The notes beneath the pieces are model-generated. The model had not been told where the DNA came from, searched no databases, and worked only from the letters and a program-made list of their open reading frames with translations. Shown piece after piece: positions 3,712 through 62,889 of a DNA stretch of 64,000 bases. Position 1 is the stretch's first letter. The number at the start of each line of letters is the position of its first letter. Source of the stretch: an uncultured bacterium (lineage in GTDB: Bacteria > Fidelibacterota > UBA2242); the NCBI GenBank assembly GCA_964576275.1, contig CAZNUN010000003.1, positions 69,848 through 133,847 on the forward strand. The letters run 5' to 3'. The position numbers and the translations under genes were made by a program.

Positions 3712-5258
3712 GTGCATTTCAAATCAAACGGGCTGTCATCAGTGTCTGGGACAAAACCAATATTGGGCTGCTGGCCCAAACATTGGCCGATCACGGAACG
3801 GAGATATTTTCAACGGGCGGCACTTTCCAGGCCTTGAAAAACGCCGGTTTGGCAGTGCAAAAAATTGAAGATTTGACCGGCTTCCCGGAAATTCTGGGCG
3901 GGCGGGTCAAGACCCTGCATCCGGTGGTTTTCGCCGGCTTGCTGGCGGATACTACCGAAGAAAGCCACCGCGCTGACCTTGCGCGCGTCAAAGTTGAGTC
4001 GTTTCAGCTGGTAGTGGTCAATCTGTATCCGTTCCGCGAGACATATCATGCCGGCAATAAAAGCTTCGAGGAAATTGTCGAGATGATCGACATCGGCGGA
4101 CCGAGCATGCTGCGGGCGGCTTCAAAAAACTTTAAAAATGTCGTGATTCTGTCCGATCCAGCGCAATATGAAGAATTCCTGCAAAGATTGCAGAAAGACG
4201 AAATTGATCTGGAGTATCGCCGGAAATTAGCCAGAGCGGTTTTCCTTAAAACCACGGCCTACGACGCCGAGATCGCTTCCTTCCTTTCTGGTGCCGGCGA
4301 AGATAAAATGCCGCCGGTTATAGTGCAGCCTTACAGTAAATACCAGAATATGCGTTACGGCGAAAATCCCGATCAGAGAGCCGTGCTATATGCTCCGCTG
4401 AACGAGCCGAACTGGCAGCCGTTTCAACAATTGCAAGGTAAAGAAATATCCTATAACAATTACGTTGACTGCCTGGCGGCTTATCGGTGCTATTCAACTT
4501 TCCGGACCGACGACGCTGCGGTGGTAATCATGAAACACACCAACCCGTGCGGTTTTGCAGTCGGGGCGACGCCGCTGGCGGCCTACCAGCGGGCGGTGCA
4601 GACCGATCCGGTCAGTTACTTCGGCGGGATCGTGGGCGTGAACCGCGAGGTCGATCAGGAATTGGCCGAAGAGTTTACCAAGAGCTTCCTGGAATGTATC
4701 ATCGCACCGGCTTATTCGGCGACAGCGCTGGAAATTTTAAGAAAACGCAAGAATCTGCGGCTGTTGATTCCGGATGAGAATGCCCTGCGATTCGATCTGG
4801 ATATGCGCGCCTATGGCAAAGGCTTGTTGGTTCAGGAGCAGCAAGCGTCCGAAGATGCGGAAAGCGACTGGCAAACGGTGACCGAGCAACAGGCCGATCC
4901 GGCCTTACTGCCGGCTATCAGAATTGCCTGGCATGTGGTCAAGCATGTCAAATCCAATGCAGTGGTCTTTTGCAATGCGACCGGTACGGTCGGGGTCGGG
5001 GCTGGGCAGATGTCAAGGGTTGACTCGGCCAAGATCGCCGTACGCAAAGCCGGCGAAGCGGGCTTGTCGTTAAAAGGAACGGTGATGGCTTCGGATGCCT
5101 ATTTTCCGTTTCGGGATTCGGTCGATCAGGCCGCCGCAGTTGGTGCTGTAGGAATAGTTCAGCCGGGCGGCAGTATCCGGGATGAGGAGAGCGTCAAGGC
5201 TTGCAATGAGTATAAAATGTTTATGGTATTTACGGGTAAGCGGGTTTTTAAACATTAA
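3708..5258 (+). CDS. purH: Bifunctional AICAR transformylase / IMP cyclohydrolase
   Basis: 516 aa. The N-terminal MGS-like domain ([29 protein letters not shown]) and the AICARFT domain are both recognisable. Confidence 0.95.
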
Positions 5259-7564: not shown

Positions 7565-9370
7565 ATGTATATTTCGCACAACACGGTTACAAATCTGAGA
7601 AAGAACGTCCTGGTCGGTTTATTCATTGTGATTTTCATGATTTTAATCGGCCGCCTGTATTATTTACAAATAGTTGAAGGCCCGAGCTATAAGGGGATTG
7701 CGGAAGCCAATCGGATCCGGGTCGTTCCGATCGAGGCTCCGCGCGGGATAATCTATGACCGCAAGGGTCAGATCATCGCGGATAATGCCTCTCAATATAA
7801 TATCAATGTTATTCCATATGAATTCAGACAGAATTCTCAGGCGGATTCGACCCTGGCGGCAATCCTGGGATTGAGCACCAAACAGCTCAATACCCGCATT
7901 CGAAACAACTGGCGGGGACAATTCGTTCCGATCAGGGTGGCTGAAGACGTCGATTTTCAGGTGTTGACGACTATTGAAGAGCATCGTTTGGACTTGCCGG
8001 GAGTTATTTATTCGCTGGAACCTGTCCGCTCCTTTCCGACCGGAATTCGCATGTCGCAATCTCTGGGCTATGTGCGCGAAATCGGTCCCAATGATCTGCG
8101 TCTTGTAAAAAATCAGGAATACAAACAGGGCGATGTGATTGGCTGGAGAGGAGTCGAAAGACAGTATGAAACTCTTTTAAGGGGCAATCGCGGCTTTAAC
8201 TTCATACAAGTGGATGCTCTCGGGCGGGAGGTTGGCAATCTGAAAGATCGCAGCAATATTCCGCCCAGTCCCGGTAACGATATGTTTCTGACAGTCGATC
8301 TGGATCTGCAGGTTTATGCCGAATCCCTGCTGGAAGGATATAAGGCCGCGATGGTCGCTATGGACGCCCACAGTGGCGAGATTCTGAGCATTGTCAGTAA
8401 ACCGGATTATCCGCCAGCGGTCTTTTCCGGTGTGGTTTCCGGGAGTATGTGGAATCAACTGCGCAGTGATCCGAATTTGCCGATGTATAACCGCGCTACT
8501 CAGGGCACCTATCCACCGGGCTCGACTTTTAAAATTATTGCGATTTTAACCGCCCTGGAAACTCAGGCCGTAGATACAAATTGGTCGGTGGTCTGCCATG
8601 GACAGTATCGTCTTGGCCGGCGGATTTTCAAGTGCTGGGAACAAAGCGGGCACGGTCGGATGAACATGCACGACGCCGTGGTTCATTCCTGCAATGTATA
8701 TTTCTATAATTTAATCCGCCGTCTCGATCTGAATGAGTGGGCAAATATGGGCAAGGCATTCATGTTCGGAACCTCCACCGGCTCCGATCTGTTCGATGAA
8801 TCGGAAGGAGTCATGCCGGACGTCGGTTTCCTGAATCGGAAATACGGTGAACATGGCTGGACGGATGGCAATAAGCTCAATCTGGTGATCGGACAGGGCG
8901 ATGTTCTCGTCACGCCGATTCAGATGGTCCGCTTCAGCGCGGCTCTGGCGACCCGCGGTAAGTTGGTGCAACCACATGTCGGACTGAAATATATTGACCG
9001 CATTACCAATCAGACCCACTACTTTACCAGTAAATCCGATTCGATCCGCCGTATTTCCACCCGCAACTGGGAGTTTGTCGAACGGGCAATGAATGATGTC
9101 GTGAACGGCGGCACCGGCCGGGCTGCCCGGGTGCGGGGCGTTCAGGTGTTTGGCAAGACTGGCACCGCCCAGAACCCGCATGGCGAGGCGCATGCCTGGT
9201 TTATCGGCTACATGAAAGAACGTGATCAGACTATCGCCCTGGCGGTTTTGGTCGAACATGGAAAATCCGGCGGCGGCATTTCCGCCCAGATCGCCGGTAA
9301 GATTTTCAATTTTATCCGACAGCAGACTGTCAATCAAATGGTGGCTAACAATGCGCCGGTCAATCATTAA
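7565..9370 (+). CDS. mrdA: Penicillin-binding protein 2 (elongasome transpeptidase)
   Basis: N-terminal TM anchor, PBP dimerisation domain, and transpeptidase motifs STFK (GSTFKII), SxN and KTGT. Confidence 0.9.
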   Translation: MYISHNTVTNLRKNVLVGLFIVIFMILIGRLYYLQIVEGPSYKGIAEANRIRVVPIEAPRGIIYDRKGQIIADNASQYNINVIPYEFRQNSQADSTLAAILGLSTKQLNTRIRNNWRGQFVPIRVAEDVDFQVLTTIEEHRLDLPGVIYSLEPVRSFPTGIRMSQSLGYVREIGPNDLRLVKNQEYKQGDVIGWRGVERQYETLLRGNRGFNFIQVDALGREVGNLKDRSNIPPSPGNDMFLTVDLDLQVYAESLLEGYKAAMVAMDAHSGEILSIVSKPDYPPAVFSGVVSGSMWNQLRSDPNLPMYNRATQGTYPPGSTFKIIAILTALETQAVDTNWSVVCHGQYRLGRRIFKCWEQSGHGRMNMHDAVVHSCNVYFYNLIRRLDLNEWANMGKAFMFGTSTGSDLFDESEGVMPDVGFLNRKYGEHGWTDGNKLNLVIGQGDVLVTPIQMVRFSAALATRGKLVQPHVGLKYIDRITNQTHYFTSKSDSIRRISTRNWEFVERAMNDVVNGGTGRAARVRGVQVFGKTGTAQNPHGEAHAWFIGYMKERDQTIALAVLVEHGKSGGGISAQIAGKIFNFIRQQTVNQMVANNAPVNH

Positions 9371-57118: not shown

Positions 57119-59458
57119 TCAGCTGATGGACTTTTGGAGACGGCTGGCTAACTGACGGGCAATGCTGGCCGGTTCAAATTCCCGATCGGCATTGCTCCAG
57201 ATTTTGAGGGCGGTCTGGACATGCATGGCAGCCGCAGCGGGATCGCCCAGCGCCTGGTAAATTTCCGCCATTTCAAGATGAGCGGCCGGATGGAATGGCA
57301 AGACTTTTAGGGTGGTCGTCAGCAGACTACGAGCTTTCGCAGGATCACCAGCTAGGCGGTAACAGCGCGCTATGTCGATCATGACCGTTACCGCGGTGGG
57401 TTTGATATTCAATTCCTGCTGGTATTCCAAAATAGCGCCGAGATAATCCGATTTCAATTCGCAGATCTGGCCGCGGAGGTGATGAAGGCGGTCGGATTGA
57501 TGATAGCTGCTGAATATTCGGATAGCGTCGGCGAATTTATCCGCTGCTGTTTCGGCGGGAGCCGTTTTGCCGGCGGCGATGTAAAATTCGGCAAATCCGA
57601 CGGAGACCAGTTTGTTCCAGGGAGCTGCCAATTGATTTTCGATTTGGTTCAGATATCGTCCGGCGCCGCCAGCGTCGCCGATTGAAAAGTAACAATTGAG
57701 CGAGCCATCGAAGATCCGGTTGATTGCTACCGTGGCCGGATTGAGAAATTCGGCCTGAGCCTGGAACTTGTCATCCCGGGCGCGAAAGGCTGCCCGGATC
57801 TGGCCAGTCCGTTCGTAATAGTGCTGCAAGGCCTCATAGACCTGACTTCTCTCGTTGGCGGTGCGGGCCTGACGCAAGGCCTTGTGAAGGTCATCTAGCG
57901 CGCTTTCCGATTCACCAGTCTCGAGAGCGATATTGCACAGCTGGATCGCGGCGGTGATGGCCGCCGGTTCAAGGGCCAGAGCGTCGGTATAATATTGTTG
58001 GGCGGTGGTATAGTTACCCATTGTGAAATAGAGGTTTCCAAGGGCAGTGAAAGCCTGATAATCGCCGGGAAAATCCTGTTGGTATTGGGTAAAGTATTTC
58101 AGAGCATTTTTAAAATCGCCGCTCGTCAGATAAATATCGCCAATATACTGTAAATAATAGCGACGACTCGGGTCAAGCTGCATGATAGTATTATATTCAG
58201 CGATGACCTTGTCCGGTTCGTTGCGTTTCAGGTATTCGGCCGCCAGGCTAAAGTGCCCGCGCACATCGCGTGGGTAAAGTTTGACCCACATTTCCAGCAC
58301 GGCAAAACGTTTATCCGGATTTTCAGTGACCTGATAATATTCCTGTTTGATGACCAGGCGGGTCAATTCCGGGACTTTGTAGAGATGCTGCATAGCAGTT
58401 TGCAACGCCGTCAGAGCTTGGGCGGATTGATGGAAGTTGACATAGCAAGCATACAGCATCCAATAGGCCAGAGTGAAGGTCGGATCGAGGTGTACGGCTC
58501 TTTCAAAATAGGGCGTGGCGTCTTGGTAATTATTTTTCAGGTTGACCAGATCGCAACCGAGGAAATAAGCCCGGGCTGCAATCGGATCGTTGGTCAGGAG
58601 AGCCTTAACCGGTAAATCTTCGGTCTGTTCGATGTGCCAGACCGGCAGGCCTAGATCGGTTTTCAATTCTCGCGTGATTCGATCAATTACCACGCAAAAA
58701 TCCTTGTCCCGATAACTATGTTCGGCAATGAGCTTACCATTACCGGTTTCATAGAGATAGGTGCTGACGATGAACGTGTCACCGGCGGTAGTGAAGGAGC
58801 CGCCCAGAAAATATTCGCGCTGGATTTCAGTGGCGATTTTACGTTCGAGCGTCATCGGCAGCCCCGCGCTGTTGGTGAGTCCGGTTTTCAGGATTTTCTG
58901 GTAAATCACATTGTCGGACGCCGAATAAAGCGAGAAAACCGGGTCCTGAGAGAGGTCCAGATGGCATCCGGCCATGAAAGCCGACTGCAACCAGTCAAAT
59001 TGCGTCTGTCCGGCTTGATTACGGAAGAAAAAGATCGCGACTCGGCGGTTGAATTCGCCGGCTGGAACCCGGCGTTTGATCATTTGTCCCAAATCGTTAC
59101 GGACGGTGACTTGGGTGGTGGCGGAACCGAGTTCCTGGCCGGAAAAAATGATGAAGATCATGATGCCGGTGAATAGGATATTGAGTGGAATTCCGATTTT
59201 TTCGGTGCGGGTCCATTCATCGCGGCCGGGCTTACCATGGAAGTAAGCCAGCATACTGACCGTCGGGAGCATTGATAGTAGAACGATCAACCCTAAATCT
59301 GTCAGGTGGGGAGAAATCTGATAATGTTCCACCAGCCAGCTCAGGAATTCCAGGATCGTCCAGCAGACGCCGAAATAAATAAAAATGATTTGTGGCAGGC
59401 GTCTTTCCAGAAGACGTTTCAGAAGAGTCTGTTTTTGAGCGGCTTTCTTTCTGGGCAT
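57119..59458 (-). CDS. Membrane-anchored multi-TPR protein (779 aa)
   Basis: N-terminal basic region plus 3-4 TM helices, then about 600 aa of TPR-like repeats. Confidence 0.6.
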   Translation of the reverse strand: MPRKKAAQKQTLLKRLLERRLPQIIFIYFGVCWTILEFLSWLVEHYQISPHLTDLGLIVLLSMLPTVSMLAYFHGKPGRDEWTRTEKIGIPLNILFTGIMIFIIFSGQELGSATTQVTVRNDLGQMIKRRVPAGEFNRRVAIFFFRNQAGQTQFDWLQSAFMAGCHLDLSQDPVFSLYSASDNVIYQKILKTGLTNSAGLPMTLERKIATEIQREYFLGGSFTTAGDTFIVSTYLYETGNGKLIAEHSYRDKDFCVVIDRITRELKTDLGLPVWHIEQTEDLPVKALLTNDPIAARAYFLGCDLVNLKNNYQDATPYFERAVHLDPTFTLAYWMLYACYVNFHQSAQALTALQTAMQHLYKVPELTRLVIKQEYYQVTENPDKRFAVLEMWVKLYPRDVRGHFSLAAEYLKRNEPDKVIAEYNTIMQLDPSRRYYLQYIGDIYLTSGDFKNALKYFTQYQQDFPGDYQAFTALGNLYFTMGNYTTAQQYYTDALALEPAAITAAIQLCNIALETGESESALDDLHKALRQARTANERSQVYEALQHYYERTGQIRAAFRARDDKFQAQAEFLNPATVAINRIFDGSLNCYFSIGDAGGAGRYLNQIENQLAAPWNKLVSVGFAEFYIAAGKTAPAETAADKFADAIRIFSSYHQSDRLHHLRGQICELKSDYLGAILEYQQELNIKPTAVTVMIDIARCYRLAGDPAKARSLLTTTLKVLPFHPAAHLEMAEIYQALGDPAAAAMHVQTALKIWSNADREFEPASIARQLASRLQKSIS

Positions 59459-59508
59459 TTATCTTTTCACACCGCGTTCTTAGACTCGCTTCCGCCGGAA
59501 TGGTTGCC

Positions 59509-60390
59509 TCAGCCGGAGTATTGTCTTATCGCCGTCCGAATGGCGCGGATATAATCGGGAGTGGTGCCGCAGCAACCGCCGATAATTTCTACGCCGGCGC
59601 TCTTAATGACCATGAGATTGCGGGTATAGATAGCCACATCTTCCGGGTAATGCAGAAGGCCGTTTCGCAGAACCGGAATCCCGGCGTTGGGCTGGATAAT
59701 GACCGGAACCGATACCGCCGCCCGGATCATTTCGGCTAAACGCACCATTTTATCACTGCCGATAGAGCAGTTGGCACCTACAGCGGCGGCACCCGCGCCT
59801 ACCAAAGCCTGCATGGCGTTGCTAACCTGGTTGCCCATCAGGGTCGCAAATCCGGTTGGATTTTGTTCAAAAGTCAAGGTGACGAAGACCGGTTTCCGGG
59901 TGACCTGAAGCGCTCCTTTGAGGGCAGCTAAGGCTTCATTCAAATCAAACATCGTCTCGATAATATACAGATCGACGCCGGCGGTTTCGAGACAGGCTAC
60001 CTGCTCGGCAAAGACAGCCACGGCTTCTTCAAAACCGATCAGGCCGTAAGGCGCCATCATTTCGCCCATCGGCCCAATATCGCCGGCGATAAAATTACCC
60101 GGCTGAGCGGCGGCTTTGGCCGCCTCAACCATGCAGCGATTGATCTCTTCGACGCGTTTCTCCAATCCGTTTTTCTTAAGTTTTTGAGCAGAAGCGCCGA
60201 AGGTATTGGTCGTAATCACATCGGCGCCGGCAGCGACATAATCAGCATGGATTCCGGTAACAACTTCCGGATGTTCCAGACACCATAGCTCGGGCGTCAC
60301 CCCGGAAGGCAGACCGCGCTGCATCAAGAGCGAACCAAAAGCGCCGTCGAACAATAAACCTTTTTCTTTAATCCGGGACAAAATATCCAT
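59509..60390 (-). CDS. Homocysteine S-methyltransferase (MetH N-terminal Hcy-binding-domain-like, stand-alone)
   Basis: Pfam S-methyl_trans-like. Opens LLFDGAFGSLL and ends GGCCGTTPDYIR with the zinc-binding Cys pair. Confidence 0.8.
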   Translation of the reverse strand: MDILSRIKEKGLLFDGAFGSLLMQRGLPSGVTPELWCLEHPEVVTGIHADYVAAGADVITTNTFGASAQKLKKNGLEKRVEEINRCMVEAAKAAAQPGNFIAGDIGPMGEMMAPYGLIGFEEAVAVFAEQVACLETAGVDLYIIETMFDLNEALAALKGALQVTRKPVFVTLTFEQNPTGFATLMGNQVSNAMQALVGAGAAAVGANCSIGSDKMVRLAEMIRAAVSVPVIIQPNAGIPVLRNGLLHYPEDVAIYTRNLMVIKSAGVEIIGGCCGTTPDYIRAIRTAIRQYSG

Positions 60391-60519
60391 AGCATTTCTC
60401 CATTAGTGATGGTAAATGTAAAAACCTTCTAAATAGAAAACAACTTTGTTTATAAAATCGTGCGCCAGCACATTATTATTGCAGTCAATCTCGCTTCGGC
60501 GCCAAAACCTGATTTGGTA

Positions 60520-60558
60520 TTTACTGCAATTTGAAAAATCGTGGCAATGTCGTATTTT
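60520..60558. repeat. Left copy of a roughly 38-nt direct repeat (TTTGAAA..GTGGCAATGTCGTATTTT) flanking the RhuM remnant
   Basis: The 18-nt core GTGGCAATGTCGTATTTT at 60541-60558 is identical to 61102-61119. The flanking TTAC-N-TTTGAAA is also shared. Confidence 0.5.
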
Positions 60559-60584
60559 CCTGTCACCAAGGTAAACTAAAAACG

Positions 60585-61010
60585 ATGCCCCAAAACGAGA
60601 AAATTTTTATTTTTCAACCGCCGGAAGGTTTTCCAGCGCTGGAAGTGCGTCTGGAAGAAGATATGGTTTGGCTTACTCAAAAGCAGATATCTCAACTCTT
60701 TAATGCCGAAAGAAGCGTAATCATAAAGCCTATCAATAACATTTATAAAACCGATGTCCTTCCGAGAAATTCAGTCTGTGCAAAATTTGCACATACTACC
60801 GTCGATGGTAAAACCTATCAGACATAATATTATAATCTCGATATGATTAGTTCCGTCGGTCATCGGATCAATTCTAAGCTGGGCACCCAATTCCGCATCT
60901 GGGCGACGAATGTTCTTAGGCAACATTTCGTCCAGGGCTATACGATCAATGAAAAAAGGCTTACCGAGATCCGCGACAACTTTCGCAGGTTGAAGTCATC
61001 GGTAATCTGA
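60585..61010 (+). pseudogene. RhuM-family (virulence/Fic-DOC-like) gene remnant with an in-frame TAA and a C-terminal truncation
   Basis: ALEVRLEEDMVWLTQKQISQLFNAERSVI...SVCAKFAHTTVDGKTYQT-TAA-YYNLDMISSVGHRINSKLGTQFRIWATNVLRQHFVQGY matches the conserved RhuM N-domain. The stop at 60825 is in frame. The protein ends at about 140 aa, where RhuM normally runs about 330. Confidence 0.55.
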
Positions 61011-61079
61011 TTAATCGCGATAATTAAACCTGAAGATTAAAAAACCAATTTTAGCGTTGCCAAATTGGTTTTGGAAACA

Positions 61080-61119
61080 TTTTACCGTAGTTTGAAATCT
61101 TGTGGCAATGTCGTATTTT
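61080..61119. repeat. Right copy of the direct repeat, about 40 nt upstream of the GH57 gene
   Basis: See the left copy. TTTGAAAT..GTGGCAATGTCGTATTTT fits a Bacteroidota-style -33 TTTG / -7 TAnnTTTG promoter. Confidence 0.5.
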
Positions 61120-61158
61120 TAACGGTCGTTACTTGAAATAATTAAATAAGGATAGATT

Positions 61159-62889
61159 ATGAAAGGCTACTTTTCCTTAGTTCTGCACAGTCATTTACCC
61201 TATGTCATCAATCACGGCGAATGGCCGCACGGCATGGACTGGCTCTATGAAGCCGCTGCCGAAACCTATATTCCGCTCCTATGGGAATTCAATAGTTTAG
61301 TTAGCGACGGTATCAGTCCGAATGTTACGATCGGGATCACGCCCATCTTGGCCGAGCAGCTGGCCGCCGAACGTTTTAAAAATGGCTTTGCCGGTTATCT
61401 GGATGTAAAAATTAAAGCCGCGCTGGAAAACCGGGAGGAGTTTGCCGCAATCGGCAACGAGCACCTGGAAAAGTTAGCCGAAATGTGGGCTGATTATTAC
61501 CAGGGTGTGTCCGATTATCTGAATTCCCTGCCGGACCGAAATATTTTATCCGCCTTCAAGAAACTCCAGGATGAGAATCATCTCGAAATAATCACCTGCG
61601 CCGCCACGCATGGCTATTTTCCATTGCTCGGCAGCGATGAAGCCATCGACGCCCAGGTGCGGGTTGGCAAGGAAACCTACCGGCGTCATTTCGGGCGCGA
61701 TCCGCGCGGCATGTGGCTGCCGGAATGCGCTTACCGCCCGAGTTACAACTGGTCTTCGCCAATCAAGGAATATCCCAAAACTTTTATGCGGCGCGGCGTG
61801 GAGGAATTTCTGTTCAAATATGATATTCAGTATTTCATCGTTGATAAACACCTGATCCTGGGCGGCAAGAACCGGGGCGTTTACATTGATCGCTATGAAT
61901 CCCTCAAACAACTCTGGCAGCAGTTCGAGAAAAACTGGACGCCGCCGGCCGAGGAGAAAGACCGCTCGATCTACCAGCCTTACCTGGTTTCTTCAACCGG
62001 CACCGGGCGGGTGGCAGTGGCTTACGGCCGGCACGAGGAATCCGCCCTGCAGGTCTGGAGCGGCGAATGGGGCTATCCGGGCGACGGGCGCTACCTGGAA
62101 TTTCACAAGAAGCATTTCCCGGGCGGACATCGCTACTGGCGGGTGACCAGCGCCAAAGCCGATTTGGCTGACAAACAGGAATATTCGCCAGCGGAAATCG
62201 AAGAAGCTCTCGAAAACCAGGCCAGTCACTTTGTCGAAGTCCTCCAGAATTATATCGTGAAGAATTATGAGGAAAGCGGCAAAATCGGTGTCCTGACCGC
62301 GCCCTTCGATACGGAACTCTTCGGACACTGGTGGTTCGAAGGCCCGCGCTGGCTCGGGAAAGTTTTGCGGAAAATCAACGCAAATCCTGATATTAAAGCC
62401 ATTTCACTCGGCAATCATTTGTCCGATAACCGTCCGGCGCAGGTCATTAGTATGCCGGAAGGCAGTTGGGGACAAGGTGGTTTCCATTATATTTGGCTGA
62501 ATCAATGGACGGAATGGACCTGGAAACACATTTATGCGGCGGAAGACCAGATGGTGGAACTGGCCGAAAAACACCATGACACCGACGACGCCACTCTGCG
62601 CCGCATCCTGAACGATCTGGCGCGCGAACTCCTGCTGCTGGAAAGTTCCGACTGGCAATTCCTGATCAGCACCTGGAGCGCACGGGATTACGCCGAAGAG
62701 CGGGTCAGCGTGCATCGCGATCAATTCCGCAACCTCGTAAAAATTTTATCCAATTACGAAAACGGCAAAAACCTCTCTGAAACGGATGAAAAGTATCTCG
62801 CGCGCATCGAGCGGGTTGATGATGTTTTTCCAAACCTGGATTATACTTACTGGCGCAAATTGCCGGCGGAGGGAAAATTCAATCAGTAA
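61159..62889 (+). CDS. GH57-family alpha-glucan branching enzyme
   Basis: Hallmark GH57 N-terminus FSLVLHSHLPYV plus catalytic-region blocks. It lies immediately upstream of glgA. Confidence 0.85.
   Translation: MKGYFSLVLHSHLPYVINHGEWPHGMDWLYEAAAETYIPLLWEFNSLVSDGISPNVTIGITPILAEQLAAERFKNGFAGYLDVKIKAALENREEFAAIGNEHLEKLAEMWADYYQGVSDYLNSLPDRNILSAFKKLQDENHLEIITCAATHGYFPLLGSDEAIDAQVRVGKETYRRHFGRDPRGMWLPECAYRPSYNWSSPIKEYPKTFMRRGVEEFLFKYDIQYFIVDKHLILGGKNRGVYIDRYESLKQLWQQFEKNWTPPAEEKDRSIYQPYLVSSTGTGRVAVAYGRHEESALQVWSGEWGYPGDGRYLEFHKKHFPGGHRYWRVTSAKADLADKQEYSPAEIEEALENQASHFVEVLQNYIVKNYEESGKIGVLTAPFDTELFGHWWFEGPRWLGKVLRKINANPDIKAISLGNHLSDNRPAQVISMPEGSWGQGGFHYIWLNQWTEWTWKHIYAAEDQMVELAEKHHDTDDATLRRILNDLARELLLLESSDWQFLISTWSARDYAEERVSVHRDQFRNLVKILSNYENGKNLSETDEKYLARIERVDDVFPNLDYTYWRKLPAEGKFNQ

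Follow-up and report, generated by a model that had tools for sequence, protein, structure and literature searches.

The question raised by this locus is how a fragment of a RhuM-family gene came to lie between two near-identical direct repeats. The locus is part of a 64,000-nt stretch of DNA, hereafter the window, from an uncultured member of the Marinimicrobia, the group also known as Neomarinimicrobiota or Fidelibacterota; this placement is given by the relatives of its GH57 gene. An earlier note had read the repeats either as a duplicated promoter segment or as the scar of an integrated element. The repeats themselves were confirmed. A gapless 39-nt direct repeat occupies 60520-60558 (TTTACTGCAATTTGAAAAATCGTGGCAATGTCGTATTTT, copy 1) and 61081-61119 (TTTACCGTAGTTTGAAATCTTGTGGCAATGTCGTATTTT, copy 2) of the forward strand; the two copies start 561 nt apart and are identical at 33 of 39 positions (85%). 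The 3' part of the repeat is an 18-nt core, GTGGCAATGTCGTATTTT, which is the same in both copies and lies exactly where the note had placed it, at 60541-60558 and 61102-61119. All six differences between the copies fall within the left 21 nt, a distribution with a probability of 0.017 (C(21,6)/C(39,6)), and the first mismatches around the core are at 60540/61101 and 60559/61120. When as many as three mismatches were allowed, the core had 2 matches in the 64 kb against 0.10 expected, and none of 100 shuffled sequences reached 2. No significant extension of the repeat beyond 39 nt was detected on either side. Likewise, no significant longer duplication was detected when the sequence following copy 1 and that following the truncation of the gene were compared with the leader of the downstream GH57 gene, or when the left flanks of the two copies were compared with each other.

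The fragment between the repeats is a RhuM-family pseudogene (60585-61010, forward strand). Its frame begins with an ATG at 60585, is interrupted by an in-frame TAA at 60825-60827 (codon 81), and closes with a TGA at 61008-61010, giving 141 codons; the N-terminus is intact and the homology ends near codon 141. These values agree with the earlier note, which had reported the TAA at 60825 and an end at about 140 residues where RhuM normally has about 330. The assignment to RhuM survived the profile HMM search: Pfam PF13310 (RhuM) matched the remnant with E=1.7e-20 and a score of 73.8 bits, the cut-off being 33.7, spanning only profile positions 1-76 of 252, and the PADLOC profiles PDC-S05 and PDC-S23 matched with E ~1e-48 over positions 1-135 of 327-331 residues. 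The remnant thus passes the family threshold, and it has neither the full domain nor an intact frame of ~330 residues. Whereas the RhuM half of the RhuM/Fic-DOC label given by the note is upheld by PF13310 and PADLOC, the Fic-DOC half applies to full-length relatives, and no Fic/DOC part is left in the remnant. NCBIfam and solved structures gave no matches for the remnant. In alignments with RhuM homologues, a Gln stands at the position of the stop codon, consistent with a single CAA-to-TAA change, and the homologues run well past residue 141, where the similarity of the window sequence stops.

RhuM genes are known to be embedded in type I restriction-modification (R-M) and other defence loci (PMC3710099, PMC9881135); the function of RhuM is only predicted, a toxin having been proposed (PMC3710099). 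The closest rhuM homologues found here (74-76% identical) are situated between hsdS and hsdM or adjoin AbiEi/AbiEii. The remnant shares with the family a strong match over its 141 N-terminal residues and homologues within R-M and AbiE loci, and it differs in being less than half the usual length, in having the premature stop, and in lacking neighbouring R-M or Abi genes, none of which were found beside it in the window. At the DNA level, the remnant is 79.8% identical to the rhuM genes in six loci (L087-L092) over 60631-60961. The similarity is restricted to that interval, and upstream of those genes copy 1 is not kept. The 26 nt from copy 1 to the rhuM start codon (60559-60584, forward strand), which form the left end of the inserted DNA, resemble neither the GH57 leader nor the sequence 5' of the rhuM homologues. 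The GC content is 0.37-0.42 across the rhuM region and 0.50-0.57 in the flanks.

Copy 2 is the promoter region of the GH57-glgA operon. The gene for the GH57 1,4-alpha-glucan branching enzyme (61159-62889, forward strand; PF03065 and PF09210) is the right core-genome flank of the locus, and it is followed by a glgA-type glycogen synthase gene (PF08323 and PF00534). The GH57 orthologues are 86-92% identical, 15 of the 110 members of the GH57 cluster being among the matches listed. The 5' leader of the gene (61120-61158, forward strand) is of a type common to the window and the related loci L121, L123, and L133. A module consisting of TTTGAAATCTT, five variable nt, and AATGTCGTATTTTTA was found ~40 nt 5' of the GH57 start in every close relative examined. 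Its 29 nt are identical in L029, L105, L111, L124, and L126, with one mismatch in L121 and four in L123, and more distant Marinimicrobia keep the TGTTGTATTTT element at the same place 5' of GH57. Promoters of the Bacteroidota/FCB sigma-A type, as described for Bacteroides, carry TTTG at -33 and TAnnTTTG at -7. The repeat copies fit the Bacteroidota-type pattern of TTTG, 19 nt, and TAnnTTT, which the pattern test found in copy 2 (TTTG-19-TATTTTT); copy 1 reads TTTG-19-TATTTTC and also TTGAAA-16-TATTTT. Copy 2 thus resembles the FCB-type promoters in this arrangement and in the TGTTGTATTTT-like element kept upstream of GH57, but lacks the final G of the -7 consensus, and copy 1 has TATTTTC in its place. 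On the basis of this conservation we regard copy 2 as the putative promoter module of the GH57-glgA operon, its promoter activity being predicted from sequence, and the duplicated promoter proposed in the earlier note is in this respect borne out.

An empty site for the insertion was found in a sister assembly, GCA_030154485.1 (L133), whose GH57 is 92% identical to that of the window and which groups with L121 in a neighbour-joining tree. In the window, the left core flank is a homocysteine S-methyltransferase-family gene (SMT; 59509-60390, reverse strand), a 293-aa ORF identified as PF02574 on identical contigs, preceded by a conserved leader/promoter block (60391-60452, reverse strand) at which the homology of relatives ends and which forms the left edge of the variable DNA. 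The gene order on both sides is the same in L133, where the SMT-GH57 gap is 215 nt and holds a single module, CAATTTGAAAAATCATGGCAATGTCGTATTTT. This module has the copy 1 base at all six diagnostic positions (35 of 39 matches to copy 1 overall), and to its 3' side are a T and then the leader found downstream of copy 2. As expected of an insertion joined in the core, the single copy that the note had suggested seeking in related genomes is a hybrid. With 60559-61119 taken out, the window has 207 nt of intergenic sequence colinear with that of L133. The 67 nt that separate the SMT block from copy 1 (60453-60519) are the positional counterpart of the empty-site spacer; they are colinear only, their similarity to the L133 spacer not being significant. 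The comparison indicates that the window equals an L133-type site plus 561 bp, with the junction within or at the end of the core of copy 1 (60541-60558).

The two repeat copies correspond to two alleles of the module. Copy 1 has a type-1 left arm joined to the core and is the orthologue of the one module in the empty site, so that the type-1 arm is represented by copy 1 and L133; copy 2, the predicted GH57-glgA promoter, has a type-2 left arm, which is shared by L121, L123, L029, and L124, and L128 is mixed. The confinement of the differences to one arm is as expected of two alleles joined at the core. The GH57 leader is the same behind either arm in clade A (the window, L121, L123, and L133); in clade B, the type-2 arm of L029 and L124 is followed by another leader. 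Such mixing implies that sequence has been exchanged at the core, between arm and leader. The core is identical in L029 and has one mismatch each in L121 and L133. Because L133 is nested among genomes with the type-2 arm, either the repeat pair is ancestral and L133 has undergone a deletion or type-2 DNA was inserted repeatedly; the two-copy state may be ancestral to the clade, making L133 a deletion between repeats. At the population level, 3.4 kb of the window locus is identical on contigs from several metagenomes, which comprise all public copies, and these copies provide no evidence of excision. The window, as an occupied scar, and L133, as an empty site, document island turnover cleanly, before and after, in a phylum that lacks a cultured model.

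The interval between SMT and GH57 is a variable slot in this group of genomes. On its left side, homology with relatives ends at window position 60452 for L123, 60447 for L128, and 60448 for L133. On the right it is regained with the first bases of copy 2 (61078-61080), which is where every alignment with L029, L105, L111, L121, L123, L124, and L126 begins. L133 and L134 have the same order of SMT, TPR, thioredoxin, and ECF-sigma genes; in L132 and L135 it is more partially kept, some of the genes being absent. Five different contents abut the module in relatives, in addition to one empty state. In L123 (GH57 90% identical), 7.8 kb encoding HsdR, HsdS, AbiEi, AbiEii, and HsdM lies between SMT and the module, and in L128 and L135 the SMT-GH57 slot is filled by a peptidase operon. 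The module of L121 (GH57 92% identical) has a DISARM DrmD helicase gene and another ORF directly beside it, and type III-B Cmr genes with a Cas6-RT-Cas1 fusion gene lie 5' of the GH57 promoter in L124, L125, and L127; these DISARM and CRISPR-Cas genes abut the GH57 promoter in genomes where adjacency to SMT was not seen. Finally, L029 has a tRNA-Phe gene with reiterated fragments 5' of the module. L105 and L029 are 98% identical rightwards of the position aligned to window 61080 and unrelated leftwards of it, and the abruptness of this break indicates that the module edge is a real recombination junction rather than the point at which similarity fades. A rhuM trace was also detected in the complete island of L123, in which ~60 nt directly 5' of the module (7808-7871) align to window 60735-60797, within rhuM, with a score that none of 1000 shuffled sequences reached. 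This fossil implies that rhuM beside the promoter predates the split of the lineages or that it was inserted repeatedly. No second module was found at the left end of that island.

With conserved flanks, variable content, and known defence systems among the contents (type I R-M, AbiE, DrmD, Cmr/Cas1/Cas2, and a RhuM candidate), the SMT-GH57 gap has the properties of a core-genome hotspot, one at which horizontally acquired DNA, mostly defence genes, appears to be gained and lost. Comparable hotspots are cDHS1/2 of Pseudomonas aeruginosa (PMC10250203) and the integration hotspots of E. coli (PMC10121019). The likeness lies in a fixed slot, here between SMT and GH57, of varying content and with an empty state. 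Unlike in those cases, a promoter rather than a tRNA or gene end bounds the slot on the right, and the slot is known from a handful of metagenome-assembled genomes of an uncultured Marinimicrobia clade, without mobile-element backbone genes being seen. The gap is a useful place in which to seek defence genes in Marinimicrobia genomes.

Several minor features of these related loci were recorded. The DrmD-like sequence in L121 1-2771 corresponds to the C-terminal 411 aa of the helicase (PADLOC E=5.7e-71); it is accompanied by a 503-aa ORF without a confident family, and the genes of this segment end 17 nt before the module. The Cas6-reverse transcriptase-Cas1 fusion in L124 1-6746, as also in L125 and L127, has 924-939 aa, and Cas2 was called in L127. 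The Cmr locus belongs to an L029-like species, and L126, which has the same GH57 protein, carries housekeeping genes there instead. In L029 3770-4297, ~110-nt tandem units each start with the first ~12 nt of tRNA-Phe(GAA) (4224-4297); the array is partly N-masked, lies ~650 nt from the GH57 module, and looks like reiterated attachment-site fragments. In clade B, a 29-mer with 8-9 mismatches to the module occurs at L128 3270-3298 (equivalent to 9890 in L135/L137 and 9905 in L134), ~54 nt beyond the conserved SMT block and in a position analogous to that of copy 1. By our estimate it is the only such background match in ~1.7 million positions, pattern-fetched loci excluded, and L128 3579-3668 aligns with window 60491-60580 with a score reached by 2 of 3000 shuffled sequences. 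These module-like stretches of clade B may be what is left of an ancient second copy or may reflect chance; they are suggestive but too weak to use.

Taken together, the locus is very probably a relic of defence-island DNA inserted at this hotspot, with the repeats being two alleles of the GH57 promoter. The two interpretations in the earlier note are each supported in part and turn out to describe one event: the inserted DNA is demonstrated by the L133 empty site, whereas neither an integrase nor a free element, as an integrated element would imply, was found. For the route of insertion, we attach about an even probability to a single reciprocal exchange in the core, between the resident promoter and a promoter that lay 5' of rhuM on the incoming DNA, with decay thereafter. 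In the resident GH57 promoter, as in L133, the 18-nt core would have stood between a type-1 left arm and the GH57 leader, and the incoming DNA, probably circular, would have carried a type-2 arm and the same core just upstream of a rhuM gene. A single Campbell-type reciprocal exchange inside the core, whether site-specific or driven by homology, would insert this DNA and swap the left arms. Copy 1 would then consist of the resident arm and core, now facing rhuM, and copy 2 of the incoming arm and core with the resident leader, so that the glycogen operon would stay expressed. Later, most of the inserted DNA would have been deleted and the CAA-to-TAA stop acquired in rhuM, leaving 522 bp and one extra repeat, a direction and timing that we infer. 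Exchange in the core is supported by the confinement of the differences to one arm (p = 0.017), by the low GC content of the insert, and by the variable DNA abutting the junction in relatives. Further evidence in its favor is the conservation of copy 2 at GH57, the hybrid module of L133, the mixed arms and leaders, the defence genes of the slot, the rhuM fossil of L123, and the R-M and AbiE setting of the nearest rhuM homologues. Against it, a run of 18 identical bases is short for RecA-dependent exchange, no recombinase, free form, or sign of excision turned up in the loci and scans covered, and the L123 island is without a second module on its left. In addition, the type-2 arm resembles the ordinary clade B GH57 promoter and need not have been borne by an element.

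The same sequence data are fitted by an illegitimate join at the end of the core, and this is the less probable but still substantial competitor to exchange within it. Here, a linear piece of DNA from a related strain, carrying rhuM, the type-2 promoter, and GH57 in that order, would have entered once by homology-facilitated illegitimate recombination, joining on its right by homology in GH57 or its leader and on its left, by chance, just after the resident TATTTT. The repeat would then be the orthologous resident and donor promoters lying side by side, with the core identical through conservation. The two alleles, the L133 empty site, and the lack of a recombinase would be explained equally well. 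L123 provides an actual case, within the clade, of a rhuM remnant lying immediately 5' of a type-2 module, and the core is conserved between species in any case, as its identity in L029 and single mismatches in L121 and L133 attest. However, the left junction would have to coincide with the conserved core end, the intact rhuM start codon would have to land 26 nt behind a complete promoter, and the mixing of arm and leader alleles suggests that exchange took place here more than once. Far less probable is a local tandem duplication of the resident GH57 promoter, with one copy decaying at random and rhuM arriving separately. Such a duplication would account for the species-variable spacer GTGGC that both copies share, but copy 1 equals L133 at all six differing positions, so that random decay would have had to reproduce six states, and the differences are confined to one arm, with no extension of the repeat into either flank.

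Still more improbable, to the point that we give it very little credence, is that the repeat is a generic promoter or regulon motif of which the two occurrences are independent. Both copies do fit TTTG-19-TAnnTT and TTGAAA-16-TATTTT. The core, however, has only the two matches in the 64-kb window at up to three mismatches, the 11-nt -7 part alone is not enriched in the window, and the spacer bases differ between species and yet are identical within the window genome. In 391 kb of DNA from related loci, moreover, the module occurs once per locus and always at GH57, copy 1 of the window being the sole duplicate, and the core is found there only at the GH57 promoter, not upstream of many genes, which the earlier note had named as a refutation. 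An exact-core scan of metagenomes returned 28 loci, 2 of them the GH57 promoter and 26 unrelated, mostly in coding contexts, the latter being roughly the yield that we estimate for an 18-mer by chance; no metagenome locus had both copies, so the window contig evidently lies outside the coverage of the scan. A separate possibility concerns the fate of the gene rather than its arrival, namely that the 80-codon ORF (60585-60827) is alive, kept as a small stand-alone protein and expressed from copy 1. PADLOC PDC-S05 includes profiles of 82-87 residues, gene callers predict an 80-aa ORF in the remnant, and the conservation of copy 1 with respect to L133 equals that of copy 2 with respect to L121. 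We consider this quite unlikely, since in-frame homology continues for 60 codons after the stop, as is typical of a recent nonsense mutation, and the family's catalytic or C-terminal portion has been lost. On the favored reading of a decayed gene, public assemblies divide one pseudogene here into ORFs of 80 and 55 aa.

The inserted DNA invites comparison with integrative elements, whose attL/attR repeats rebuild the target, classically the 3' end of a tRNA gene. Direct repeats are present at both ends of the insert, and an unoccupied relative carries a hybrid copy. As with attL/attR, the insert lies between imperfect direct repeats that share an identical core, the empty copy joins the outer arm of the left repeat to the outer flank of the right repeat, and the inserted DNA brings a substitute for the part of the target that it displaces, such that the operon promoter is complete. 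In contrast to such elements, no integrase, free attP, or evidence of excision was found here, the target is a promoter, and the presumed element is now only 522 bp. No tRNA genes that could have served as a target were found in the window. No recombinase gene (integrase or transposase) was detected in the 522-bp insert, in the annotated ~5 kb to its left, in the annotated 6-kb flanks of the locus, or in the module neighborhood of relatives; a set of DUF772 transposase fragments (L124-L128) is the only related trace. When metagenome and viral contigs were scanned with the exact core, no free attP-like form came up, the sites being either linked to GH57 or due to chance. A phage or viral origin was considered and rejected, as the exact core had no matches in viral contigs and a degenerate pattern had three, all unrelated and AT-rich.

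The component parts of the locus are all of known kinds and reveal no new kind of system; what is unusual is that the target is a promoter rebuilt by the insertion, that no mobility genes were found, and that the phylum is uncultured. The insertion splits a promoter yet leaves a predicted working copy before the host operon. It is conceivable, though unlikely, that the GH57 core is a dedicated attachment site, reused by recombinase-poor or trans-mobilized defence cassettes of Marinimicrobia that bring replacement -33 arms. If so, this would be a promoter-swapping insertion system in which the host glycogen operon and the first gene of the cassette both keep a complete promoter.

The sequences flanking the two copies contain several potential secondary structures. 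A small inverted repeat at 60459-60472 resembles a terminator hairpin on the reverse strand followed by a T-rich tail, and the arms of another inverted repeat lie at 60478-60489 and 60519-60530, the second arm reaching into the start of copy 1. Immediately 5' of copy 2 lies an AT-rich hairpin followed by TTTT (61041-61072, forward strand) that is weakly terminator-like. Its minimum free energy of -11.8 kcal/mol is not significant (z = -0.97), and the hairpin was rejected as a strong terminator because this folding energy is unexceptional; it could nonetheless limit read-through into copy 2. Hairpins in a similar position 5' of the module were seen by eye in L029 and L123. For structured RNA, 59400-61400 gave no Rfam match at E<=1. 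The core scan also brought up a minisatellite at ~1500-2550 of L113, which has ~40-nt units containing TGTGGCAATGTCGTACTAT and is unrelated to the locus. Within rhuM, the short PDC-S05 profiles match residues 1-79 of the remnant, which suggests that N-terminal RhuM fragments of ~80 aa are common elsewhere as separate ORFs, and the TAA in the window gene (ORF 60585-60827) falls at the boundary of those fragments. Finally, a near-perfect palindrome with 12/12-nt arms (AGTCTGTGCAAA / TTTGCACATACT) is located inside rhuM at 60773-60797, where it encodes the conserved SVCAKFAHT motif and is the best-kept part of the L123 rhuM fossil.
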